From positions 1 to 20,430 of the forward strand of contig NZ_JAYKGW010000014.1 in assembly GCF_035285525.1 (NCBI RefSeq): a DNA stretch of 20,430 nt, given 5' to 3'. A program made the translations under genes and the position numbers. Source of the DNA: Okeania sp. (GTDB lineage: Bacteria > Cyanobacteriota > Cyanobacteriia > Cyanobacteriales > Microcoleaceae). Positions 743 to 20,430 of the stretch are shown piece after piece (the stretch's first letter is position 1; each line of letters opens with the position of its first letter). The notes beneath the pieces were generated by a model. It saw nothing but the letters and a program-made list of their open reading frames with translations, did not search any database and was not told where the DNA came from.

Positions 743-3175
743 ATGTTCGAGAAAATGAAATTTGTTCAGAAATGGACAGCGATTGCCCTCAGTGGCATCC
801 TACTGTCCCTTTCCCTGTGGACGTATCCAGCCCAAGCTGTCGAAGCGCCCCAGCGTTACGCCTACTTTGGCGATCTACATACTCACACCACCTATTCCCT
901 TGATGCCTACACGGGCTTCATGCGGAATGACCCCAACGCAGCCTACGAATTTGCGAGTGGTGGCTGCAATGTTGTGCCAGGTGGTCCACAAACCTGTGAC
1001 GAAACTCTTGGTATCCCCCTCCACAAACTAAAAAAGCCCCTAGACTTTGCTGCCGTTACCGATCACGCCGAATTTTTAGGTGAGATGGAAATGGCTATCA
1101 ATCCCGAATACGGCAAAAAGAAATACTACAATCCTCTAGCCATTGCTATTCGGAACAAACCCCAGTCTGAATTACTATCAACCTTGGTTTTTGTTAAGGT
1201 CTTGCAAGCAGCAAACCGTGGTAACAACCCCGAACGTAGTGACTATGGCTCCGGTCCCATTGCCGATGAAGCCAGAGTTAACGCATGGAAAAAAATTCAA
1301 CAGGCTACAGAAGACTACTACAAACCTGGAGAGTTTACGACGCTGCATGCCTTTGAATGGTCATCAGCTCCAGGCGGTGTCAACTTCCACCGGAACGTAA
1401 TTTTCGGCGACACTGTTCCTACGGACGAGAATGGTAACGTTTTGCCTGGAGTTCTCCCCGATGTGCCTGTCAGTGCCTTCGAGACTCAATCCCCTGAAGT
1501 ATTGTTGGAATATCTCAGTCAATACGAAGCTGGTGGTGCTAAAGTTCTAGCGATTCCACACAATGGTAACGCCAGTGCCAACAAAATGTTTATGCCCGAA
1601 CGGTGGGATGACGATACACCCATTGACCCTGAATGGGCAGCAAAGCGTGCCAAGTACGAACCATTAGTCGAAATTATGCAAATTAAGGGGACTTCAGAAA
1701 CCTTACCTGACTATGCCCCCGAAGACGAATTTGCGGATTTTGAATTAATGGAACTCACAGACCGGACTCGCGGACGCTACGGTTATGTGCGCGAAGCTTT
1801 GAAAAACGGTCTGCGCCATGAAGAAAACTTAGGAATCAACCCCTTCAAGTATGGTATTGTTGGTGCAACAGACAACCACAACGGTTCCCCTGGCGATACC
1901 TACGAAGATGACTATATGGGTTCCCACGGTTTCAGCGATGCCACCCCCGAACTGCGACAATTTAGTGAGATACCAGGCTGGGAGTCCTTCCCTTATCTAA
2001 ACCCTGGTGCCCTCACAGGGGTTTGGGCTGAACAAAACGAACGTGAACCGATTTTCAATGCCCTACAGCGTAAGGAGACTTTTGGCACTAGCGGTACGCG
2101 GACTCAGGTGCGCTTTTTCGGAGGTTGGAACTTCTCTGATAATCTGAACGAGCAGCCAGATGCAGTTGACACTGCTTACACTACCGGCGTACCAATGGGT
2201 CAGAATTTGCCAGTGCGGGCAAGTGAAGCACCGAAGTTTATGGTCTGGACAACGAAAGATCCCGATGGGGCTAACCTGGATCGGATTCAGATAGTTAAAG
2301 GTTGGACGAAACACGGAGTGACCTACGAGAAAATTTATGATGTGGTAGGTTCGGATGGTCGCACCTCCGATCCAGAAACCCACAGACTGCCTCCTCTTGA
2401 AAGTACGGTGAATGTGGTCAATGCTACTTACGAGAATACTATTGGCGAGCCAGAACTTTCTACAGTCTGGACTGACCCCGATTTTGACCCCACGGCACGA
2501 GCAGTCTACTATCTGCGGGCACTGGAAATTCCTACCCCCCGCTATTCCACCTATGACGCTGCAGAATTGGGCATCGTCCCTAACCCAGTTTCAGCAACGG
2601 AAATCCAAGAGCGGGCTTGGAGTTCGCCTATCTGGTATACCCCCAGTGAGGAAGACTTGACCGCAGGAGAGGCAAATTCCCTGACTGTTGACAAACTGGA
2701 AGCAGCGGGAATTCAACCCCTGACGACTCAGCAGATTAAAGACCGGATTTCTGGCCATAATTTCCAGATTGCCAACCGCATCACAGAGGAGGAGTTTATC
2801 GGTTTCTTCCAGCCATTGGGCTTGCGTTCGGAAGGTGAGTGGTTTTTAGGGTTGTCAGCTAGCTACGCACCAATGCACACCCACGAACTAGAAGCGGCAG
2901 TGCCGACAAAGTACGAGATTAAGGATAATGAACTTCACTTTAACCTCAAGGATGGTAGTGAGTTCGTCGCCCAACTCTTCCTTCAGGATGGGAAAATTCT
3001 GGCAGCTCGCAATGACGAAATTGGCTATGTTAACTATGAGTTGACAGACCTCGAACCAGAGATAGAGCGGTTGACTCTACCTCCTCAAATTTCTGAAAAG
3101 TTGAGTTCACAAGATTTTTGGGATTTAATCATTCAGCAAGTTGAGAAACATTATTCAATCAAGCAGATCAAGTAA
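743..3175 (+). CDS. Secreted DUF3604-family protein (PHP-like metal-dependent hydrolase fold), 810 aa, with an extra ~170-aa C-terminal region
   Basis: Long ORF behind a strong SD. Signal-peptide-like N-terminus (...LWTYPAQA/VEAP). Motifs GDLHTHTTYSLDA, AAVTDH, FEWSSAPGGVNFHRNVIF, AIPHNGN, VRFFGGW, LDRIQIVKGW and ERAWSSPIWY are what I recall for DUF3604. About 50% identical by eye to the next gene. Confidence 0.88.
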   Translation: MFEKMKFVQKWTAIALSGILLSLSLWTYPAQAVEAPQRYAYFGDLHTHTTYSLDAYTGFMRNDPNAAYEFASGGCNVVPGGPQTCDETLGIPLHKLKKPLDFAAVTDHAEFLGEMEMAINPEYGKKKYYNPLAIAIRNKPQSELLSTLVFVKVLQAANRGNNPERSDYGSGPIADEARVNAWKKIQQATEDYYKPGEFTTLHAFEWSSAPGGVNFHRNVIFGDTVPTDENGNVLPGVLPDVPVSAFETQSPEVLLEYLSQYEAGGAKVLAIPHNGNASANKMFMPERWDDDTPIDPEWAAKRAKYEPLVEIMQIKGTSETLPDYAPEDEFADFELMELTDRTRGRYGYVREALKNGLRHEENLGINPFKYGIVGATDNHNGSPGDTYEDDYMGSHGFSDATPELRQFSEIPGWESFPYLNPGALTGVWAEQNEREPIFNALQRKETFGTSGTRTQVRFFGGWNFSDNLNEQPDAVDTAYTTGVPMGQNLPVRASEAPKFMVWTTKDPDGANLDRIQIVKGWTKHGVTYEKIYDVVGSDGRTSDPETHRLPPLESTVNVVNATYENTIGEPELSTVWTDPDFDPTARAVYYLRALEIPTPRYSTYDAAELGIVPNPVSATEIQERAWSSPIWYTPSEEDLTAGEANSLTVDKLEAAGIQPLTTQQIKDRISGHNFQIANRITEEEFIGFFQPLGLRSEGEWFLGLSASYAPMHTHELEAAVPTKYEIKDNELHFNLKDGSEFVAQLFLQDGKILAARNDEIGYVNYELTDLEPEIERLTLPPQISEKLSSQDFWDLIIQQVEKHYSIKQIK

Positions 3176-3355
3176 ATCTACTCTGGCATCTCACAATAGT
3201 TGGGTAATTTCCCAACCCATTGATTGAGTGTAAGTCCAGCGACTGACAGATAGCTTCCTAACTAGAAGCGATCGCCAAAAAACCTGAACCAATAGAAACC
3301 TTGTCCAAAGTTCAAAAATCCAACAAAAAACAATTCCTACAGGAGTTATCAAAAA
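3172..3355 (+). promoter_or_regulatory. Leader copy L2 (long-hairpin variant), between the two DUF3604 genes
   Basis: GTAAATCTA 3172-3180 contains the TAA stop of gene 1. P1 is CTGG 3183-3186 / CCAG 3236-3239. P2 is CTCA 3190-3193 / TGAG 3225-3228. Also CAAT 3194-3197 / ATTG 3219-3222 and an apical stem GTTGGG 3199-3204 / CCCAAC 3211-3216. GCTTCCTAAC at 3253-3262, AGGAG SD at 3341-3345. Confidence 0.5.
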
Positions 3356-5536
3356 ATGAATCGAACGATTTCGCAAGTCCAACGGCTTTTGGTCGGACTT
3401 TGCACTCTCCTCTTCGTGGGTAGGATATTCCTCGGTGCTAATAGCGCCCTGGCAACTCCCTCGATCCCCGGAGAATACGACTTTATATTTCGGAAAAGCA
3501 ACTCAACCACTGTGCCTGAAGTAGATTGTCGCTTTTACCCAAATACCAAGTGCTACTCTCCCAATGTGCAGCATCCTCAACAGGTATTATGGGGCGATAC
3601 TCACCTGCATACCATTTATTCTTTTGATGCAGGAGCCGATGGAGCTCGTTTGACACCAGCCGATTCCTATGAATTTGCTAAAGGCAATGAAGTCACGATT
3701 GATGCAGGACAACCTGTCAAGCTTTCTCGTCCCTTAGATTTTTTAGTCGTTACCGATCACTCGGACGGATTAGGGGCTTTTGGGGATTTTTTGTATAATC
3801 TTCCCACAGATTGTGGTTCCGATCAAGAGCAGGTCAATACCTGGCATGAGATGATTCTTGCAGGTGGAGATGAGGCATCTCAAGCTTCATCAGAAATTAT
3901 TGCCAGTTTTTCCCAAGGAAACTTCCCCTTATGTATGTTTCCCTCTGCCGAAGAATTCCAAACTTTCTGGCAGGAAATTATTGATGCAGCAGAAGCTTAT
4001 AACGATCCGGGTAATTTTACCGCTGTGATTGGTTATGAGTGGACTTCGCTGTTGGGTGGCAACAACTTACACCGTAACATCATCTACCGCGATAATGGGG
4101 ATAAAGCCAAGCAACTGGTCCCCTACACCACAGACCAAAGCACTAATCCAGAATACCTTTGGGATTGGATGCAAAACTATGAGGATAAAACAGGTGGTAA
4201 TGTGCTAGCGATTCCTCACAATGGTAATCTCAGCAACGGTCTGATGTTTGCAGAAATCGATCATAATGGTAATCCTTTAACTGAAGACTATGCTAAACGG
4301 CGACAGCTTTGGGAACCCATCTATGAAGTTACCCAAATTAAAGGTGCCAGTGAGACCCATCCAGAAATATCTCCTGATGATGATTTTGCTGATTTTGAGG
4401 TTGCAGGTTGGGATATTGGCAACCTGGATCTGAGTTTCCCCAAACCCCCTGAAACCGATCCCGAAGCCCGCAAGAAGATGTTTGAGCATGAATATGCTCG
4501 TCCAGCTCTGAAAAATGGACTAAAATTTGAAGAAAGCCTGGGTGCTAACCCGTTCAAATTTGGTCTAGCAGGTGCATCAGATTCTCATATTGCTCTGTCG
4601 GCAGTCGAAGAGAATAGCTACATGGGTAAGTTTGTAAGTGAAGCTCCCAGTGCTGAACGAGCAGTAGAGGATCATGGCGGTCGTTTGGGATGGCAGTATG
4701 GAGCCTCTGGCTTTATAGGAGTTTGGGCTACGGAAAATACCCGTAAGGCTCTATTCGATGCGATGGAACGGCGAGAAGTTTATGGCACAACCGGACCGCG
4801 TATGAAGGTGCGTTTCTTTGGCGGTTGGGATTTTGCCAACTCCGATCTAGAGGATATGGCTGAAGTGGGCTACAACAAAGGAGTTCCTATGGGTAGCGAT
4901 TTACCTCCAGCACCTCCGGTTCCTGCAATATATCCACCCCCGATTCCGTCTCCAACCTTTATGGTGGCAGCGATGAAAGATTCTGATTCCTATGGAGCAA
5001 ATCTAGACCGGATTCAAATCATTAAAGGCTGGCTGGATGCTGAGGGCGAAACCCATGAGAAAATCTACGATGTAGCTTGGTCTGGCGGACGTACCCCTGA
5101 TACCGAAGGCAAAGTCCCCGCCATTGAAAACACTGTGGACACAGAAACGGCAACTTGGGACACCACCAGCGGTGCTGACTACCTGGAAACAGTCTGGACT
5201 GACGATGAGTTCGATCTCACCCAGCGAGCGTTTTATTACGCGCGGGTGTTGCAAGTTCCGACTCCTCGTTGGACGGACTACGACAAGGCGTTCTATGGCG
5301 ATGAGTGGGATGCTGCTTGTGCTGCTGCGGAAACAGACCCGGAATTAGACATCGTTTGTGATGAGATTCCCCTAACCTTACAGGAACGGGCGTATACCTC
5401 TCCGATTTGGTATTCTCCAGCTACAGTAGCAATGGAATCCACATCCGAGTCTACCCAACCTGTTGAAAATGTGGCTGAAGAAGATTTTTGGGATACAATC
5501 ATTCAGCAGGTTGAGAAACGTTATTCAACTAAGTAG
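3356..5536 (+). CDS. Secreted DUF3604-family protein, paralog 2 (726 aa)
   Basis: Signal-peptide-like N-terminus (...GANSALA/TPS). Same motif series as gene 1: GDTHLHTIYSFDA, VVTDH, YEWTSLLGGNNLHRNIIY, AIPHNGN, VRFFGGW, LDRIQIIKGW, ERAYTSPIWY. Confidence 0.88.
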   Translation: MNRTISQVQRLLVGLCTLLFVGRIFLGANSALATPSIPGEYDFIFRKSNSTTVPEVDCRFYPNTKCYSPNVQHPQQVLWGDTHLHTIYSFDAGADGARLTPADSYEFAKGNEVTIDAGQPVKLSRPLDFLVVTDHSDGLGAFGDFLYNLPTDCGSDQEQVNTWHEMILAGGDEASQASSEIIASFSQGNFPLCMFPSAEEFQTFWQEIIDAAEAYNDPGNFTAVIGYEWTSLLGGNNLHRNIIYRDNGDKAKQLVPYTTDQSTNPEYLWDWMQNYEDKTGGNVLAIPHNGNLSNGLMFAEIDHNGNPLTEDYAKRRQLWEPIYEVTQIKGASETHPEISPDDDFADFEVAGWDIGNLDLSFPKPPETDPEARKKMFEHEYARPALKNGLKFEESLGANPFKFGLAGASDSHIALSAVEENSYMGKFVSEAPSAERAVEDHGGRLGWQYGASGFIGVWATENTRKALFDAMERREVYGTTGPRMKVRFFGGWDFANSDLEDMAEVGYNKGVPMGSDLPPAPPVPAIYPPPIPSPTFMVAAMKDSDSYGANLDRIQIIKGWLDAEGETHEKIYDVAWSGGRTPDTEGKVPAIENTVDTETATWDTTSGADYLETVWTDDEFDLTQRAFYYARVLQVPTPRWTDYDKAFYGDEWDAACAAAETDPELDIVCDEIPLTLQERAYTSPIWYSPATVAMESTSESTQPVENVAEEDFWDTIIQQVEKRYSTK

Positions 5537-5561
5537 ATGAAGTAAATCTAACCTAGTATTT

Positions 5562-5658
5562 GTAGGTTGGGTTGAGGACACGTTTGCGGAGTATTTCCAA
5601 CGGAAAGACCCAACATTACCAAGATTTTTGTTGGGTTTCCTGCGTCAACCTAACCTAC
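5562..5658. mobile_element. MITE-A copy 2 (uninterrupted, ~97 nt)
   Basis: GTAGGTTGGGTTGAGG at the left end and CAACCTAACCTAC at the right end are inverted repeats. Collinear with 378-437 plus 553-589. Confidence 0.6.
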
Positions 5659-5673
5659 ATTTTTGATGATCAA

Positions 5674-5768
5674 GTAAATCTATCCTGGCATCTCACAATG
5701 GCTTGGGAAACTACCAAACCATTCAATGAGTCTAAGTTCTGGAGGAAGCGATCGCTTCCTAACTAGAG
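5674..5768 (+). promoter_or_regulatory. Leader copy L3 (orphan: no intact gene downstream; proposed P1 3' half mutated)
   Basis: GTAAATCTA 5674-5682, CTGG 5685-5688, CTCA 5692-5695 / TGAG 5727-5730, AATGG 5697-5701 / CCATT 5719-5723. The 3' partner of P1 reads TTCTGG instead of TCCAG. 16-nt palindrome GGAAGCGATCGCTTCC, then GCTTCCTAAC at 5754-5763. Confidence 0.4.
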
Positions 5769-5907
5769 ACCATAAACTTACGAACTCACTGTTTTTTTTA
5801 ACTGTTGTCTATATTACAAGAATTAACCGAGTTTGCCTGTGTAGATTTTTGAGAAAAATGAGACTAAAAGGAAGTATAATTATTGATGTTAATCTTGAAA
5901 GAAAATA

Positions 5908-6290
5908 ATGCCAGCCAAAGATACTTATCATCAAGCCGTTAAAAATGCTTTAATTAAAGATGGTTGGGTAATTAATTACTTTTGACCCTGATCCTATAAA
6001 TATGAAGAAGTTAAATTAGTTGCCGATCTGGCTGGCGAAAAAACAATTTCTACAACTAGAGAAGAGCAACAAATTGTGATTGAAATTAAAAGTTTCCTGA
6101 GCCGTTCTCCGATGCGTGAATTTCAAACAGCATGAGGACAATATTTAATTTGTCAACTATTACCCATCCGATTTATCAAGTTTATTTAGCAGTTGGTCAC
6201 AAAATTTATGAAAAGTTTTTTACACAAAATGCTATTCAATTAATTATCCAAAAATATCAAGTTTTACTATTAGTGATTAATATTAAATAA
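5908..6290 (+). pseudogene. xisH: xisH-like gene, decayed (in-frame stops and a frameshift)
   Basis: Starts MPAKDTYHQAVKNALIKDGWVI and continues ...EEVKLVADLAGEKTISTTREEQQIVIEIKSFLSRSPMREFQTA*GQYLI, typical of the XisH family. It is broken by TGA codons. The C-terminal part (HPIYQVYLAVGHKIYEKFF...) is in another frame. Confidence 0.7.
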
Positions 6291-6304
6291 CAGGAAATTA
6301 TCAA

Positions 6305-6646
6305 ATGGATAAGCTAATTAATTATCAAAATATCATCAAACAAATCTTAACTAATTATCAAAGAATATCAGAACAAATTCCCGATCCTGATATAAATGAA
6401 GTATTAATGTTTGATGACCAAAGAAGTTAATATCTTTGGTTTAATATTGGCTGGAAAAATGAGAAACGAATTAAAGCAATTTCTGTTTATGTTAGGATTA
6501 AAAATGAGAAAATTTATATTGAAGAAGATTCGACAGCAGAAGGAATTGCTAATGAATTATTAATAAAAAATGTACCGAAAGAGGATATTGTTTTAGCTTT
6601 CCACGATCCAGAAACTCCTAAATTAACTGAGTTTGCTGTTGTTTAA
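6305..6646 (+). pseudogene. xisI: xisI-like gene with one in-frame TAA (6428-6430)
   Basis: [112 protein letters not shown] matches the XisI pattern (GW...IE.D.TE.GIA.EL...[12 protein letters not shown]). It sits directly after xisH, the usual pairing. Confidence 0.7.
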
Positions 6647-6673
6647 ATTTATATTCCTGTGAATACTTACCTT

Positions 6674-6884
6674 ATAATTAACCGCGAACAACTCAAAAAC
6701 GAACTTGATTCTGTCGATGATGCAACAATTAATATCCTACATAATGTCAGAATAGCACTCAAAAAAAAATAGTGAATCTTCTAATTTTCTAACTAACTGG
6801 TTAGTCAATAATCTACTCAAAAATAGTGTTATTTATGAAAAAGATATTATTTCTCCTATTGATGAAAATTGGTCTAACTACTGA
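6674..6884 (+). pseudogene. Decayed paralog of the 11611-11823 antitoxin gene
   Basis: Collinear with 11611-11823 at high nucleotide identity. The ATG is replaced by ATA at 6674-6676. An A9 run (A8 in the intact copy) shifts the frame into TAG TGA. The upstream context 6655-6673 is also shared with 11591-11610. Confidence 0.7.
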
Positions 6885-6975
6885 AGCCGAATCATTAAAC
6901 AAAATTTGACAAATATTAATAAATATTGAAAATATACTGATGTTCTGCTGTTATTAAGCTATTGTTTATACTAAC

Positions 6976-7066
6976 AGGACTTACACGGGAGGTACTATAT
7001 ATAGGGTATTGGTGCGTTACATGATCGTGTAACGCACCCTACCAAGAGCGTTCATGTGTAAGTCCT
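6976..7066. mobile_element. MITE-B copy (AGGACTTACAC ... GTGTAAGTCCT terminal inverted repeats, internal GGTGCGTTAC/GTAACGCACC hairpin)
   Basis: 11-bp TIRs at 6976-6986 and 7056-7066. Internal 10-bp stem spans 7011-7038. Related copies are at 11465-11552 and 19786-20153. Solo ends are at 305-321 and 9887-9898. Confidence 0.6.
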
Positions 7067-7122
7067 AACTAAATTATCAAATACTTTTTTCCTGGCTCAC
7101 CAGTTCAAATGCAATCAATTTG

Positions 7123-7294
7123 GTAAATCAATCTATTGTCTGCCTTTTGCCTTCCCAACTGCTTTTCCTGGCACCTCGCAATAACGAGTGGTAAGTCCAG
7201 TAAGTGAGCGATCGCTTCCGACACCAGCGGAACTGAAAGCTTCCTAACAAAAGGTACTCGTACCAAAAAAAAATCAACTTTACAAGAATCAAAC
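7123..7294 (+). promoter_or_regulatory. Leader copy L4, directly upstream of the PLP-decarboxylase gene
   Basis: GTAAATC 7123-7129 plus a ~38-nt extension shared only with L5. P1 is CTGG 7168-7171 / CCAG 7197-7200. P2 is CTCG 7175-7178 / CGAG 7185-7188 with loop CAATAA. HIP1 palindrome present. GCTTCCTAAC at 7239-7248. Confidence 0.45.
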
Positions 7295-12446: not shown

Positions 12447-14984
12447 CTATGGTGCTAATTTACCTTTACCAAGTCTATTTTTTTCATACCATTCTGCTAT
12501 ACTAGGAACCCAATCTTGAACATGAGGCCACATTAACTCACATAATTTTTGAATTTCTAATTGAGCATTCTTTTTAAAACGTAAATCCAAAAAATGTAGC
12601 AAACTACGGGAATTAAAACTAACAATAAAATGCTGACGATAATCAAAAGGAATTATTCCTCTAGCGTGTTCTTCAGACATTCCTAAATCCATAGCAATTT
12701 TATATTTATTAGCTGCCTCTAAACACCACTGTAAATCTTGTTCTCGTTGTTGAGGAGAATAATAATATTTTTTACCTTGACGGTCAAAATATTCTCCCAC
12801 CGGACGTAAGTAAAAAGCAGTTTCTATATCCGTTTTTCCCTCTGCCACTGCAATAACTTTTCCGGAACAGTAACGATAACTTTGTACATCAAAAGAATTA
12901 TGAACAACTAAACCATTAGCGATAAAATTATGTTCTGGATGTTCTACTTCAATATCATAAGTAATTTCTTTCCCAAATTTTTCAATAGATTCTATTTCTA
13001 CAAAATCAGGGAACAGGGAACAGGGAACAGGGAACAGAGAATTAATAGGATTTATAGTTGATTTTGGATAGGAATTTTCTGCTATCCACTTTTCATCCAA
13101 GATTTCTTTTTCCCAAAAATTAATGTCTCGTTGAGCAATTTTATTACCAGTTAATCCCACTTCACATAATTGAGTTTTATTCTTCTTTATCAGGAATGGG
13201 GAACAGGGAACAGGGAACAGATAATCAATATAATTTATAGTTGATTTTGAGTGGGAATTTACTGGCATCCACTTTTCATCTAACATTTCTTGTTCCATAA
13301 AACTAATTTCCTGTGGAGGAATTTTATTACCAGTTAATTGCACTTCACATAATTGAGTATTATTATCAAATTCCTTCAACCTTTTCCACCCTTGATTAGT
13401 CCAAAACTGGTGTTCTAATGTAGCTCTTATTTCTTTACCAGAAACAGTTTTTATTGTGTAAGTTTCTTGTTCGCCATTAATATAAATATTAGTAATTTTA
13501 CTAGAAACAAGTTGGTTAGTTTTAGTATCTAAAGTCAAAATAGTACGTCTAGATATACTCTCTTGCATATATTTTGCATCATTAGAAGTTTGTTGATGTT
13601 TTCTCCCGTAATGCCATAAATTAGCTAATTTTTCAATAGTTTCTTCATAATATTTCTCTCCTCTATATAAAGACGAATGCCCAAATCTAACCTTTGTATT
13701 ACCCGACAAACAACAACCTATTCTATGAGTTCTTGCTTGTTGCATCACACTATGAGGAAAAAATCCACAATTAAAAGTAATTTGCGGGTGTTCAAGACAA
13801 TTTCCACAGACAATAACTTTTCCATTTCTTCTAACTAATAAAGCACCAGTAGAAACAGAAGCGCAATAAACTTTACCTTTGTAATTAACAAAACCTTCTT
13901 TTCTTCCTGCATCTTTATTTTCTTGACAATATTCAACAGGATATGTAGAAATTTCAGAGCTATGTAATCTCCAGCAAGGTTTCTGATTTTTATCCGCTTC
14001 ACACTCATTTTTATTATTTAAAGTTAGGTTTGCCCTAAAACCATTAATATGTGCAGTTGCTTGAATTATTTCTAAAGCATTTTTATTAGTTGAATCATAG
14101 CACCAACTTTTTTCTTTTATATTTGTACCATCACTGTTTTGTAAGCCATCCCAAAAACTTGCTATTAAATTTGCTGGTAATTCTAATAACCAAATTGGCA
14201 CAGTCTTATCTTCAGAATTAGAAAAATTTCGATGAATCCATGAAGCTAAGGATTTGTGTTCAATTACAAACCTATTTTCCTGAGTTTTTTCGATGTCTAA
14301 ATTCAATGAAAGTAAATAATCTATTTTGCCAGAATTTTGTATTGTAAATCTAACAACATCAGAATTTTTATTTATACTTCTCAACCCATCTCTATAGAAA
14401 AAACCTGCTATTCTAAAAGCTGTTTCTAAGTCGATATTTTCTGGTAGATCCTTAGGTAACTTTCTGGAACTATTTTTTAAATAGCAATTCAATAAATAAC
14501 GTACTGGTGTATTATAAACATCTTCAGCTTTTTTGCTAAACCATTCTGTCCAATTATTTTCTGTACTTGTTCTTCGGGAAACTATCATCCTATGGTCTTT
14601 TGTGACTAGCAAATCAATAAAATTGCTCTGAACATAATATAATTCATCATCTATATCATACTCATAAAGTTTACTTGGCTTTTCAAACCAAGCCTCTTTT
14701 GTCTCAGGATTTACAGCTAGTAACTCCATAGCATAAGTTATTTTATTCCAACTAATCCAACCTTGATTTGTTAACACTTCAGTATCAGCAGAATAGCATC
14801 CAAAATGGCCGCGATCGCCTGCTAAAAGTCGCTTAACAATAATTTCCCCACATTTTGCTTCCGAAGGCCAAGTATTTTGTTCATCAAAGACAAATCCTTC
14901 ACTATAATCTTGATGTAAAGCTGCATAAATTAGTTGTTGAGGATTAGGTGTTTTGTTAATAATTTCTACTCGAAATTTATCCAT
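12447..14984 (-). CDS. thyX: FAD-dependent thymidylate synthase ThyX precursor carrying two inteins (845 aa; exteins total ~240 aa)
   Basis: Exteins are aa 1-62 (...LLAGDRGHFG), aa 396-424 (CLEHPQITFNCGFFPHSVMQQARTHRIG[C]) and aa 697-845 (SFDVQSYRY...). Joined, they recreate the ThyX signature R-H-R-x(2-3)-S-x(4)-S-x-R-Y. They are separated by two Hint-type insertions. Confidence 0.88.
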   Translation of the reverse strand: MDKFRVEIINKTPNPQQLIYAALHQDYSEGFVFDEQNTWPSEAKCGEIIVKRLLAGDRGHFGCYSADTEVLTNQGWISWNKITYAMELLAVNPETKEAWFEKPSKLYEYDIDDELYYVQSNFIDLLVTKDHRMIVSRRTSTENNWTEWFSKKAEDVYNTPVRYLLNCYLKNSSRKLPKDLPENIDLETAFRIAGFFYRDGLRSINKNSDVVRFTIQNSGKIDYLLSLNLDIEKTQENRFVIEHKSLASWIHRNFSNSEDKTVPIWLLELPANLIASFWDGLQNSDGTNIKEKSWCYDSTNKNALEIIQATAHINGFRANLTLNNKNECEADKNQKPCWRLHSSEISTYPVEYCQENKDAGRKEGFVNYKGKVYCASVSTGALLVRRNGKVIVCGNCLEHPQITFNCGFFPHSVMQQARTHRIGCCLSGNTKVRFGHSSLYRGEKYYEETIEKLANLWHYGRKHQQTSNDAKYMQESISRRTILTLDTKTNQLVSSKITNIYINGEQETYTIKTVSGKEIRATLEHQFWTNQGWKRLKEFDNNTQLCEVQLTGNKIPPQEISFMEQEMLDEKWMPVNSHSKSTINYIDYLFPVPCSPFLIKKNKTQLCEVGLTGNKIAQRDINFWEKEILDEKWIAENSYPKSTINPINSLFPVPCSLFPDFVEIESIEKFGKEITYDIEVEHPEHNFIANGLVVHNSFDVQSYRYCSGKVIAVAEGKTDIETAFYLRPVGEYFDRQGKKYYYSPQQREQDLQWCLEAANKYKIAMDLGMSEEHARGIIPFDYRQHFIVSFNSRSLLHFLDLRFKKNAQLEIQKLCELMWPHVQDWVPSIAEWYEKNRLGKGKLAP
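12897..13712 (-). mobile_element. ThyX intein 2 (~272 aa), mini-intein without a recognisable endonuclease
   Basis: Starts (C)CLSGNTKVRF. Block B is ATLEH. Ends ...ITYDIEVEHPEHNFIANGLVVHN, followed by +1 Ser697. The first residue is ambiguous between Cys424 and Cys425. Confidence 0.8.
12999..13364 (-). repeat. In-frame tandem duplication (2 x 183 nt = 2 x 61 aa) inside intein 2, each unit ending in GGGAACA heptamer repeats
   Basis: Unit 1 is 13182-13364 (NNTQLCEVQLTGNKIPPQEISFMEQEMLDEKWMPVNSHSKSTINYIDYLFPVPCSPFLIKK). Unit 2 is 12999-13181 (NKTQLCEVGLTGNKIAQRDINFWEKEILDEKWIAENSYPKSTINPINSLFPVPCSLFPDFV). On the + strand (GGGAACA)x4 lies at 13009-13036 and x3 at 13199-13219. Confidence 0.85.
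13800..14798 (-). mobile_element. ThyX intein 1 (333 aa) with a LAGLIDADG homing-endonuclease domain
   Basis: Starts CYSADTEVLTNQGW (block A). Block B is LLVTKDH. LAGLIDADG-like motifs are RIAGFFYRDG and LIASFWDGLQNSDG. Ends ...VYCASVSTGALLVRRNGKVIVCGN, followed by +1 Cys396. Confidence 0.85.
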
Positions 14985-17325: not shown

Positions 17326-17696
17326 GATATTTTTCCCTAATTTTTTTCTAAACAAAAATATAATATCATCAGGACTAAAGTTTTTTATTTGAGGGGAGGA
17401 GTCAGAATCGGTGAATCCAGCAATCCTGCAATCCAGGAGGAATAACAATTATAGAACAGGTAGCCAGAATAATCTTACTCTAATTTTTTACCCCTCGAAA
17501 TACCCAAAATCCAGGATTTTTGAGCTGGAGTCTCCTAAAAGCTGGTAGTTTATTAGTATCTATAAATGCTGAAAGCAATGCCCGTAAACACTTTGATAAA
17601 TAATTCAGCCAGCCCTAAGTATCTTATTGTATCGCTTATAGCGGTCGAAGCAAAGGTTAGGACAGTTCAAAAGCTGAAAACTCAGACAACGCCAGA

Positions 17697-17742
17697 TTCT
17701 TCCTTCTTCCTTCTTCCTTCTTTCTTCTTTCTTCTTTCTTCT
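17697..17742. repeat. Polypyrimidine heptamer tract (TTCTTCC)x3 (TTCTTTC)x3
   Basis: Six consecutive heptamers at 17697-17738 plus a partial TTCT. ORF 17566..17826 runs through it and is treated as spurious. Confidence 0.85.
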
Positions 17743-17780
17743 GCTATACATACGCAAATCATCAAGATAAGTAGCCGAGA

Positions 17781-17820
17781 GTCTTTCCTCCCCGTGACTT
17801 TAGTCACGGGGAGGAAAGAC
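17781..17820. repeat. Perfect 18-bp-stem palindrome (GTCTTTCCTCCCCGTGAC TTTA GTCACGGGGAGGAAAGAC) in the 3' flank of the IsrB-like gene
   Basis: Arms are 17781-17798 and 17803-17820. A second hairpin GACGGTT/AACCGTC lies at 17825-17840, 5 nt after the IsrB stop. Either could be a transcript terminator or an IS200/IS605-type subterminal hairpin. Confidence 0.6.
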
Positions 17821-17845
17821 GAATGACGGTTTTAACCGTCGTGAT

Positions 17846-19022
17846 TTAAACAACACAGAGCTTATTTGACCGACGAATCAGCTTAACTTTCTTAAGGGAA
17901 AATTGCCCAATTCGTTTCCAATTGTGGTCGTAAACGCTGATATTTTTGCTTTTAGCATCAGTAAAACCACCAACCCATCCCATGTAGGTTTTTCCTGCTT
18001 TTTCTGCTAAAACTCGATCGCCATAACGAACATTAAAAGGAGTAGTTGTTCCCCCTTTGCGTTTACGAATGCTGCCTTTTTCTGTATTGTCAAAGTGCAA
18101 AGCACGACGAAAATAAGCAGGTCTGGTTATAACTCGGAAAATGCAAGGAGTAATATTAACTGAACCTTTCCATCCCCAAGTATCGTTTTTTTTACCAGGG
18201 GTTACGCGCCCGACGGACAAACTCACTTGCTCCCAAAGCAATCCCATCTACTGCATGAGACTCTGGTACTTGGGCTTTTTTATCTTTGATTTTCTCCAGT
18301 TTTAAATATCGGCGTATTTGGCTGGTTCCGTTATTATTCTTTTGCCAACCATAGACAGTTTTAACTGGGGCAATAGATTTGAGCTTTTCTACGCAATAAT
18401 TCTGTCCAACCATTACTGGAGAAAATCCTTTACCCGAACGCGCTCCTTTTCTACCGCTGGTTAAATCGACATCAGCTTTAACCAATTCATAGACAATTTT
18501 ACTAATAGGAAATACCTGGGAAAGTTCAGCAATGACTCTGATTTCCATCTCCCTAGAAGCTCGAATAGATGGAACTAATTTACCTTTTTGAATGCGATTA
18601 TTGAATCGCTTTTGTCGATGGGCACGTTGGTTAAAGGGTACTTTTCTATTAATTCTTCTACCTCGTCGTGCCCGACGTTGCAATGCTCGGTTTCTGACAT
18701 TTTTAATGACTTTGCCTTGCTTAATAACAGCAGAACCAAGTCGCTCTTTAACGCGGTCGAAAGGCAAAACGAAATGTGCGGCAAAAAGAGTAAACTTTGC
18801 GGATTGGACTGCAATCCCGGTATACTTTTTACCAGGGTCACAGCCAACTGCTATTTTCTGAGTTTCACAACCCGATGGTTCAGCTACCAGCCGAACATAA
18901 TACAAGCCTGTATCATTCCAATGGGAAGTTGCTTTTCCTTTCTTGAGCCAACGACGTGCCCGCGATGCTTTTGTCGGCATTGCAGGGGAACCGTCTGGAT
19001 TTTGAACTGGTACTCGAAACAT
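17846..19022 (-). pseudogene. isrB: IsrB-like (IscB family lacking the HNH domain) OMEGA RNA-guided nuclease gene, split by one frameshift
   Basis: N-terminal PLMP-type domain MFRVPVQNPDGSPAMPTKASRARRWLKKGKA. RuvC-I is KIAVGCDPGKKYTGIAV. Arg-rich bridge helix is LQRRARRGRRINRK...RFNNR. RuvC-II is KIVYELVKAD. RuvC-III is SHAVDGIALG. No CxxC/HNH insert is present. The C-terminal target-interaction-like domain (RRALHFD...KGG...FNVRYGDRVL...GWVGGF...) is in the adjacent frame (ORF 17846..18247). Confidence 0.8.
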
Positions 19023-19290
19023 AAGAGATAATCCTTTTCGAGAAAAGTTGTATGTCCCTACGACCACCAAAAACGTTGTGTCCTGGAATAACCCAGTGCC
19101 TTCACCCAAGAAGGCCAACAAATAGTCCGGGCTAGGGAAATACCCAGAGGTGTTATCGTTTTTGGCTCCATGCATGCATGGTCTAGCCAACTCTTAGTTA
19201 GACGTTGGGTTGTCCAAGCTGCGCGTCTTTAGACCGCAGAAGTTGACCTAAGTCAAAACTCTCTTCGCTATTCGTGGTTTATACACTTTT
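19023..19290 (-). ncRNA. Candidate omega-RNA scaffold (plus guide at its 5' end) of the IsrB-like element; boundaries approximate
   Basis: It is in the position expected for IscB/IsrB omega-RNAs, immediately 5' of the ORF on the same strand. Several hairpins read on the - strand: CTGCGGTC-TAAA-GACGCGCAG (~19221-19241), TTGGCT...AGCCAA enclosing the 14-nt palindrome CCATGCATGCATGG (~19163-19190), CCTTC-TTGGGT-GAAGG (~19098-19113), CTTTTC..GAAAAG (~19034-19047). The 56-codon N-terminal extension of ORF 18192..19190 lies here and has no IscB-like sequence. Confidence 0.45.
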
Positions 19291-19583
19291 TTTCATACTA
19301 AAACTACTATATTTGACATGACTCACTTGTCTCTTAATTTAGGACAAAATAATAGGAATATTACAAATAGTACCATCTATATTCTATGGTTTATGGCGGT
19401 CCTAATAGATATTATATCAAATCCGCTTAATTCGATAGAACAAAATATTTTATCTTCAACCATTACTATATCTTCCCATACTCCTCACCCTCTCCACCCT
19501 CTTTTTACACCGATACTACCGGATTTGATATTACTATTCTCACCATAGATTCTAATAGGAATATTGGTGAGCCACCTGCTCGC

Positions 19584-19667
19584 ACAGCGTTCGTCTCATA
19601 AATTATCAGTAATTATCCGTATAATACAGCGTTCGTCTCATAAATTATCAGTAATTATCCGTATAAT
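19584..19667. repeat. Perfect 42-bp tandem duplication
   Basis: ACAGCGTTCGTCTCATAAATTATCAGTAATTATCCGTATAAT occurs at 19584-19625 and again, identical, at 19626-19667. Confidence 0.9.
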
Positions 19668-19785
19668 TCACTGAAGCTGTACTCAAATTTTAATAAATAG
19701 ACTATAATAAGAAGGATTTACGCAGAGCCACCATTTCTATTAGGAGCAAATCTTTGCCTTCTATAGGTAACTCATTTTCTAACAC

Positions 19786-20153
19786 AGGACTTACCCATGG
19801 ACGCTATTAGTAGTAGTTGACTGTTTCAGCTAAAATAGTGCATTAGATTTTCTCTTTTGCTACCTTGTCTTCCTTGTCTAGACACAATCAAAAAGTAATG
19901 CACCATTTAAGGTGAAACAGTCTACTGGATTGTTTCTTCTTAAATTCTTAAATGGTGTAATAGGCTTTTTTCTCCCTTACTACCTTGTCTACCTTGCCCT
20001 CCTTGTCTTCCTTGTCTTCCCACAACCCAAAATCGCTCTGTACAGTTTTAGATGAAACAGTCTATTAGGGTGCGTTACGCTACCGCTAACGCACCAAGAG
20101 ACTACTATATGTAGAACCTTTGCGTAAGTCCTGTAACAGTTTGCGTAAGTCCT
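19786..20153. mobile_element. MITE-B copy interrupted by two tandem palindromic STR-bearing elements; right end duplicated
   Basis: The left end AGGACTTACCCA...ACGCTATTAGTAG (19786-19816) and right part TTAGGGTGCGTTACGC...GCGTAAGTCCT (20065-20132, end repeated at 20142-20153) are collinear with 11465-11552. The inserted modules 19812-19925 and 19930-20065 each have inverted ends (GACTGTTTCAGC / GGTGAAACAGTC) around CCTTG-containing short tandem repeats (2 versus 4 units). Confidence 0.5.
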
Positions 20154-20213: not shown

Positions 20214-20430
20214 ATGGCAAACATTCGTATAGAAGCAGAAAATTATAAACCAGGAGGGGAAGGAGTCGCTTACCATGACACTACTTCTGGTAACTCCGGA
20301 AACAAATATCGCTCTGAAGATGTTGATATTCAAACTACTAGCGATGTTGGAGGTGGATATAATGTCGGTTGGATCAATCCTGGAGAATGGTTGACCTACG
20401 ATGTACAAATTCCCGAAGCAGGAGATTATC
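20214..20430 (+). CDS. 5' part of a protein starting with a CBM6-like carbohydrate-binding module (runs off the right edge)
   Basis: The open frame from ATG 20214 reads MANIRIEAENYKPGGEGVAYHDTTSGNSGNKYRSEDVDIQTTSDVGGGYNVGWINPGEWLTYDVQIPEAGDY. The IEAE-Y...G-YR...VDI...GGY-VGW...GEW-Y-V pattern is typical of CBM6/CBM35-type modules. Confidence 0.6.
   Translation, partial: MANIRIEAENYKPGGEGVAYHDTTSGNSGNKYRSEDVDIQTTSDVGGGYNVGWINPGEWLTYDVQIPEAGDY

Follow-up and report, generated by a model that had tools for sequence, protein, structure and literature searches.

The window analysed here, a 20,430-nucleotide stretch of an Okeania sp. contig (NZ_JAYKGW010000014.1), carries on its minus strand an element of ~1.48 kb (17766-19247). 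The element is intergenic, with mtnA on one side and a divergently transcribed CBM6-domain gene on the other; the mtnA neighbour, which had been named in an earlier note on this DNA, is confirmed by a match to TIGR00512 (471 bits). Read along the minus strand, the element comprises a 225-nt ωRNA scaffold (19023-19247) that runs up to the start codon of an isrB gene, the gene itself (17846-19022), which is split between two reading frames, and a non-coding 3' end with two hairpins (17766-17845). Host sequence in the position of an ωRNA guide (19248-19267) adjoins the 5' end, and a TTGA motif (17762-17765) marks the 3' boundary.

The ORFs of at least 196 aa that lie in the window outside of the element are seven in number, i.e. 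those for two DUF3604 proteins, a PLP decarboxylase, an amylase-family protein, an intein-containing ThyX, an HD-domain protein and MtnA. The DUF3604 genes (743-5536, plus strand; 810 and 726 aa; Pfam E=1e-190 and 2e-221) are tandem paralogues, and the ~1.7 kb that follows them (5537-7294) has no ORF of at least 100 aa and a GC content of 28-32%, compared with 44-50% in the adjoining genes. The ThyX ORF (12447-14984, minus strand; 845 aa) lies in an AT-rich region (30-32% GC) and contains an intein (Intein_splicing, with N- and C-terminal intein regions; residues 425-697), the Thy1 profile matching residues 396-422 and 697-828 only; its first ~395 residues have no family match and exceed by far the ~50 ThyX positions that are missing, and this extra N-terminal stretch could be a second insertion or reflect a mis-called start. 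The CBM6/CBM35 gene (PF03422, 32.4 bits) starts at 20214 on the plus strand, divergently from the IsrB element, and its sequence extends past the window end at 20430. Upstream of the element are an intergenic, perfect tandem duplication of a 42-nt unit, ACAGCGTTCGTCTCATAAATTATCAGTAATTATCCGTATAAT (19584-19667), and a cluster of interlocking direct and inverted repeats (19784-20134), with arrays of the nonamer CCTTGTCTT, units recurring at ~140-nt spacing and inverted arms of 29-37 nt containing GAAACAGTCTA; the latter cluster has the appearance of small palindromic repeats dispersed in the host. On the other side, ~20 nt past the TTGA boundary, there is a TTCTTCC heptamer array of 6.6 copies (17697-17742), and ~100 nt of this region (17636-17735) recur, with 85% matches, in L011 (1897-1996) and L008 (6676-6738), two Okeania loci, at positions that are unrelated; a further short dispersed repeat is suggested.

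When its two frames are joined, the isrB gene encodes a 391-aa protein, with an ATG at 19022-19020 and a stop at 17848-17846, exactly as given in the earlier note. The IscB-type architecture described there is also found, with all of its motifs in place: a PLMP-type N terminus (PAMP, residues 13-16), the RuvC residues D62 in CDPG (18839-18837), E179 in YELV (18488-18486) and H256 (18257-18255) and D259 (18248-18246) in HAVDG, and the RRXRR bridge helix, ALQRRARRGRRINRK. The N-terminal ORF (18192-19022; 276 aa plus stop) includes the PLMP domain, RuvC-I, the bridge helix, RuvC-II, an HNH-less linker and RuvC-III, and matches the Pfam RRXRR family (PF14239) with E=4e-42. The other frame (17846-18207) encodes the phosphate-lock loop, the WED domain and the TAM-interacting (TI) domain.

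The best solved relative is DtIsrB (PDB 8DMB), which was retrieved with E=1.5e-24 using the single sequence and E=9e-54 using a family profile, the latter alignment extending from residue 2 to residue 387. Residues 2-55 align with the PLMP domain of DtIsrB, with M15, P16 and T17 being invariant in the IsrB family alignment. The catalytic residues D62, E179, H256 and D259 align with the RuvC residues of DtIsrB and are invariant in an alignment (A1) of 11 family sequences. In the profile alignment, N313 corresponds to the phosphate-lock residue N265, and R371 and Q374 correspond to R323 and Q326, which in DtIsrB recognise G and A in the TTGA TAM (PMC9581776). The alignment to residue 387 and the TAM-reading residues thus bear out the proposal of a C-terminal target-interaction domain, which in the window copy is out of frame.

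Consistent with the earlier observation that there is no HNH insertion between RuvC-II and RuvC-III, no HNH family was matched in Pfam, even at E<=10, and the 76-residue interval from E179 to H256 has no His and one Cys, such that no HNH or zinc motif is possible within it. The NCBIfam guided_IscB profile is matched at positions 3-162 of 314, with a score of 82 compared with a cut-off of 175, and IscB structures are matched with an E-value of ~1e-6 by the single sequence and of ~1e-10 by the family profile, in the latter case over residues 1-187 alone, i.e. the N-terminal half. The protein has no OrfB/TnpB Pfam match. An AF2 model from an 11-sequence alignment, of modest confidence (pLDDT 59.5) and employed for Foldseek rather than for residue-level claims, gave 8DMB as the top match (E=5.7e-24, TM 0.53/0.63), with IscBs next; matches to Cas12f and RuvC were near background (E>=3e-4, TM<=0.27). 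Both profile and fold searches group the protein with DtIsrB and not with TnpB or Cas12f, and so support its assignment, as proposed in the earlier note, as an IsrB, i.e. an HNH-less member of the RuvC nucleases. Placement with TnpB, an overlooked HNH motif and catalytic residues out of register, which that note had set beforehand as outcomes against its proposal, were not observed. The absence of the HNH domain leads to the expectation of a nickase rather than a double-strand nuclease, and by extrapolation from characterised relatives nicking by the IsrB is predicted to be guide-dependent.

The RNA upstream of isrB, to which the earlier note had also drawn attention, is identified as an ωRNA by a HEARO match and by covariation. 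At gathering thresholds, Rfam gave nothing in the window; in a permissive search the full model of HEARO (RF02033), an RNA known today as the ωRNA of IscB, was matched at 19047-19247 on the minus strand with 37.4 bits (E=1.8e-5), which is below the gathering score of 83. An nhmmer profile made from close relatives located a homologous segment directly 5' of the ORF in 66 of 80 related loci. Using an alignment of 24 sequences drawn from the related loci, RNAalifold predicted 43 pairs, 36 of which have compensatory changes. A fuller, hand-written structure, comprising P1, several stem-loops and two pseudoknots (67 pairs in 14 helices), has compensatory changes, with both sides changed, at 52 of its 67 pairs; 91% of its cells are paired over the 24 sequences, compared with 35-48% after sliding of the partners by 1-3 columns, and the observed values were attained by none of 500 shuffles. 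The first pseudoknot is a loop-loop interaction (CCCAA with UUGGG) that in other copies is formed by AACCA and UGGUU, AGCCA and UGGCU, or UCUCA and UGAGA; the second pairs CCCUA with UAGGG. The structure agrees with the published IsrB ωRNA, in which stacked helices are held by two pseudoknots (PMC9581776). On this comparative evidence, the RNA upstream of isrB is a real ωRNA; the Shine-Dalgarno sequence of the gene (AAGGA, 19036-19032) lies inside its scaffold.

The window copy retains all of the covarying helices. It has an 8-nt insertion (19168-19175) that is private to it, being absent from all 23 other aligned ωRNAs. The insertion generates a palindrome, CCATGCATGCATGG, which overlaps a long-range stem at its GACC strand, and it may disturb this stem. 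The MFE fold leaves the consensus with the insertion and regains it without; this is weak evidence, because the RNA of an intact relative (L001) likewise misfolds in silico. Read-through transcription is the usual source of IscB-type ωRNAs (PMC10055086). There is no same-orientation gene 5' of the ωRNA in the window, the nearest being the divergent CBM6-domain ORF, and there is hence no obvious source of read-through; a promoter scan found promoter-like hexamers in the ωRNA flank at chance frequency only. Elsewhere in the family, the ωRNA profile matched a segment of locus L074 (1949-2136, minus strand; E=3.5e-12) on the opposite strand to and ~0.9 kb upstream of its IsrB gene, possibly a stand-alone or relic ωRNA, and a 25-nt piece of the ωRNA 5' hairpin was seen 2.5 kb downstream of the L001 element (6751-6775).

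The ends of the element are sharply defined by comparison of its copies. Homology starts exactly at GTCAACTTCTGCGG (19247), the flanks beyond being unrelated when the window and 14 close copies are compared. In IscB-type systems, the transposon RE gives rise to the ωRNA scaffold, and the guide is encoded by sequence beyond the transposon boundary (PMC10055086, also PMC9581776); the host flank CGAAGAGAGTTTTGACTTAG (19267-19248), outside the transposon end and immediately 5' of the scaffold, therefore occupies the guide position, with a guide length of 20 nt being assumed by analogy with DtIsrB. No second match to this guide was found within the window.

At the 3' side, homology extends ~80 nt past the isrB stop, being conserved in 14 related copies as far as CTTATC (to 17766), and is lost at the TTGA that follows (17765-17762). 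The region contains a first hairpin (17825-17840) and a second one, an inverted repeat with perfect 19-bp arms (17781-17799 and 17802-17820), and a terminator-like match occurs at the 3' end of the element; the hairpins are presumably a subterminal structure recognised by TnpA and/or a terminator. As read from the sequences, the loop of the 3' hairpin, CTAAAG, is similar to that in the first hairpin of the ωRNA. Matches to mir-4716 and MIR6426 at 17780-17821 were rejected as merely reflecting the perfect 3' hairpin.

TTGA is present at the end of homology in all 15 Okeania/Dapis-clade copies, in the case of the outlier L012 by manual re-reading of the alignment, and it also ends 15/15 copies in Coleofasciculus, a divergent clade with otherwise different 3' ends (total 30/30). 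Experiments have given TTGA/NTGA as the TAM of DtIsrB, and a TTGA TAM was used to assay CwIsrB (PMC9581776); we thus predict that TTGA is both the target-adjacent and the insertion-site motif of the window element. The reconstructed empty site, i.e. CGAAGAGAGTTTTGACTTAG joined to TTGATGATTTGCG, has a guide match followed by TTGA, and would be the expected target. Overall, the element has discrete ends without inverted repeats, subterminal hairpins and a short adjacent target motif, and its copies are at unrelated sites.

The two ORFs, ORF-A (19022-18192, 276 aa) and ORF-B (18247-17846), overlap in different frames on the minus strand and merge into a single 391-aa protein when aligned with relatives. 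The earlier note had recognised that the frame needs repair, and DNA alignment with nine intact relatives locates the sole indel of the coding region, one extra nucleotide at ~18208 in CGTCGGGCGCGTAACC (18204-18212), where the relatives have CGTCACG-GCGTAACC. Removal of one base at this site gives an uninterrupted 391-aa ORF with no further defect. The lesion is recent, since the downstream frame is otherwise intact and has the signature of purifying selection, with dN/dS relative to three relatives being 0.10-0.12 downstream of the frameshift and 0.08-0.13 upstream of it. [quoted passage not shown] The IsrB encoded in the window is thus most likely inactive, with a single-base insertion cutting the RuvC core from the WED and TI domains, and, as the insertion at ~18208 splits the ORF, the locus is probably a pseudogene that belongs to IsrB by descent. 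Decay is the usual fate of such elements, other degraded copies in the family being L025, with 16 in-frame stops, and the truncated L007, L018, L023 and L024.

We consider it unlikely that the gene is functional and that full-length IsrB is made, either because the frameshift is a sequencing or assembly error or because of +1 ribosomal frameshifting at CCC-UGG before UAA. A functional gene would fit with a single indel separating the ORF from its intact relatives and with a downstream frame that has no stops and a dN/dS equal to that of the upstream part, but the visible degradation of further family copies argues against it. With respect to error, the context of the extra base is not a long homopolymer, and the base is also present in a second assembly from raw reads, a 1,769-bp Logan contig (SRR19514071 assembly) that is 100% identical to window 17713-19481 and has the same split. 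The amylase gene of the window is also found in the SRR19514071 sample only, so the contig may share its read set with the window; it is therefore perhaps not independent, and a sequencing error at ~18208 is still conceivable. With respect to recoding, frame B would be entered exactly if tRNA-Pro slipped by +1 from CCC to CCU, within a poorly conserved loop. The putative slip site, however, has neither a stop nor a rare codon in the A site, a stimulatory element was not identified, and a frameshift is not required in any of the nine close relatives; programmed +1 frameshifting was rated unlikely. Transcriptional slippage on an A8 run was rejected because the frame-A stop codon sits at the start of the run.

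A similarly doubtful proposal is that the protein is dead and that the locus is a stand-alone ωRNA gene, serving in trans the intact IsrB copies elsewhere in the host. The retention of all covarying helices, the possible ORF-less ωRNA in L074 and reports of stand-alone ωRNAs working with IscB (cited in PMC9581776) are consistent with such a role, whereas the possible disturbance of the long-range stem by the private 8-nt insertion and the finding, in a search of the window, that the guide matches the flank of its own locus alone argue against it. It is very improbable that the split gene is alive, whether through low-level +1 recoding at CCC-UGG-UAA or with the 276-aa PLMP-RuvC fragment and the ωRNA kept as a trans-acting or regulatory module; retention of the fragment together with the ωRNA would, if true, represent an early step in the domestication of an OMEGA element. 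Finally, membership of another RuvC family (an IscB with a missed HNH domain, a TnpB/Cas12f-like protein or a plain RuvC resolvase) can be dismissed as extremely improbable, for although the RRXRR/PLMP N-terminal half is common to IscB and the Foldseek list includes IscB, Cas12f and RuvC, the IscB matches are confined to that half and are >40 orders of magnitude weaker than that to IsrB, the interval between E179 and H256 has the His and Cys content given above, and Cas12f and RuvC are near background.

As the earlier note had stated, there is no tnpA in the window; the seven ORFs outside the element are without a transposase domain. No recurrent transposase was found within 3 kb in any of the 80 related loci, so the element is considered to be non-autonomous. 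tnpA is reported near ~1.5% of iscB-family genes (PMC10055086), and the missing tnpA partner is the rule for the IsrB family, not a peculiarity of the window copy. Among the candidates scored, 2,584 relatives were found at E<=1e-3, the closest being 391-aa proteins of 78-89% identity from Okeania, Dapis, Roseofilum and other cyanobacteria, which are annotated just as 'RRXRR domain-containing' or 'hypothetical'. Many genomes have multiple IsrB copies; megablast gave no match to plasmids. The clade, with its 391-aa proteins, ωRNAs of 217-225 nt and TTGA boundary motif, is abundant in marine filamentous cyanobacteria. In Coleofasciculus loci (L027-L046 and others; ~107-2794), a family of large PAS-domain sensor-type ORFs (14 loci, 19 members) is located just 5' of the IsrB element; this recurrence may be due to insertion contexts that are orthologous or paralogous, and not to a functional link.

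The overall results are best explained, with a probability that we estimate as about 0.87, by the locus being one copy of a non-autonomous IS200/IS605-type (ISC1-type) insertion sequence that carries an ωRNA and isrB and that is frameshifted. The window element is an ordinary and, in all likelihood, recently inactivated member of the known IsrB family and not a new system. By analogy with characterised relatives, the ~225-nt ωRNA scaffold would take its 5' guide from the host flank, and isrB, when intact, would supply a 391-aa HNH-less RuvC nickase. The resultant complex would recognise the empty donor site, i.e. the guide-matching sequence plus TTGA, and nick its non-target strand, so promoting re-copying of the element after its excision by TnpA supplied in trans (for the family mechanism, see PMC9581776, PMC10055086 and PMC13565253). 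With respect to the window copy, the analysis establishes the family identity, the conservation of domains and catalytic residues, the structure of the ωRNA, the ends of the element, the TTGA motif and the frameshift; nicking activity, this homing role, the mobilisation by TnpA in trans and the loss of function we infer from sequence and from such precedents.

The correct label for the locus is an IsrB/ωRNA insertion sequence (pseudogene), rather than an 'RRXRR domain-containing protein' plus a hypothetical ORF. Its importance beyond annotation is slight, and the current understanding of OMEGA systems is not challenged by it. The clade, by contrast with this one copy, comprises many intact, compact nickase/ωRNA pairs that may be mined for genome editing, and the covariation-backed ωRNA model, which includes both pseudoknots, could aid in its annotation.

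The IsrB family has been known since 2021, with a structure following in 2022, and assays of members from cyanobacteria have been published (PMC9581776, PMC13565253). The closest structural precedent for the window protein is DtIsrB from Desulfovirgula thermocuniculi (8DMB, PMC9581776), which has the same order of PLMP, RuvC-I, bridge helix, RuvC-II, HNH-less linker, RuvC-III, phosphate-lock loop/WED and TI. The two proteins share aligned catalytic D/E/H/D and TAM-reading Arg/Gln residues, their ωRNAs are directly 5' of the ORF and have two pseudoknots, and the TTGA at the boundary of the window element is the TAM of DtIsrB. The window protein differs in being ~29% identical and ~40 aa longer, with insertions after RuvC-I (residues ~88-111) and between RuvC-III and WED, in having an ωRNA scaffold of 225 nt rather than 262 nt, and in its frameshift.

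CwIsrB (Crocosphaera watsonii) and DsIsrB (Dolichospermum sp.), which were tested in vitro in 2022, are from the same host phylum as the window IsrB, and are compared here by their published description, not by sequence. Their RuvC domain carries an inserted β-hairpin and their RECL an inserted loop, and in their ωRNAs SL3 is replaced by unpaired nucleotides (PMC9581776); a short unpaired stretch is likewise present at the SL3 position in the window copy and all of its relatives. The TAM is of the NTG/TTGA type for CwIsrB, with an ATGG TAM being used in the DsIsrB assay (PMC9581776). The IsrB element of Microcystis aeruginosa orf2067 has transposed into the cyanophage Mic1, where it inserted at ATGA, and moves as a unit comprising the IsrB ORF, ~207 bp upstream and 59 bp downstream (PMC11237433). 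The layout of the window element (225 nt, ORF, 80 nt, TTGA) is similar; the Microcystis copy is intact and demonstrably mobile, whereas the window copy is frameshifted and is known from its sequence.

With IscB (OgeuIscB, 7XHT/7UTN), the window protein shares the PLMP-RuvC-bridge helix N-terminal half (E ~1e-10), differing in that it has no HNH domain. Its ωRNA is recognisable as HEARO (RF02033) over the whole model, at 37 bits, far under 83. The position of the RNA, 5' of the ORF, contrasts with that in TnpB/Cas12f systems, the ωRNA of TnpB being at the 3' end. Under the LE/RE convention of TnpA (PMC10055086), the nuclease gene reads from the RE side, unlike in IS200/IS605 elements, and the window element also differs from these in having no tnpA. 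As in IS200/IS605 elements such as IS608, there are no terminal inverted repeats, subterminal hairpins with similar loops are present at both ends, and a 4-nt target motif lies beside one end only. The hairpins are ~15 nt and ~8 nt from the element ends, a spacing that resembles the 19 and 10 nt of IS608, an IS200/IS605 family member that moves by peel-and-paste catalysed by a Y1 TnpA. The locus thus lacks the defining features of IscB (HNH) and of TnpB and, with the exception of an intact frame, has all of the sequence-testable features of an IsrB and of a non-autonomous IS200/IS605 element.
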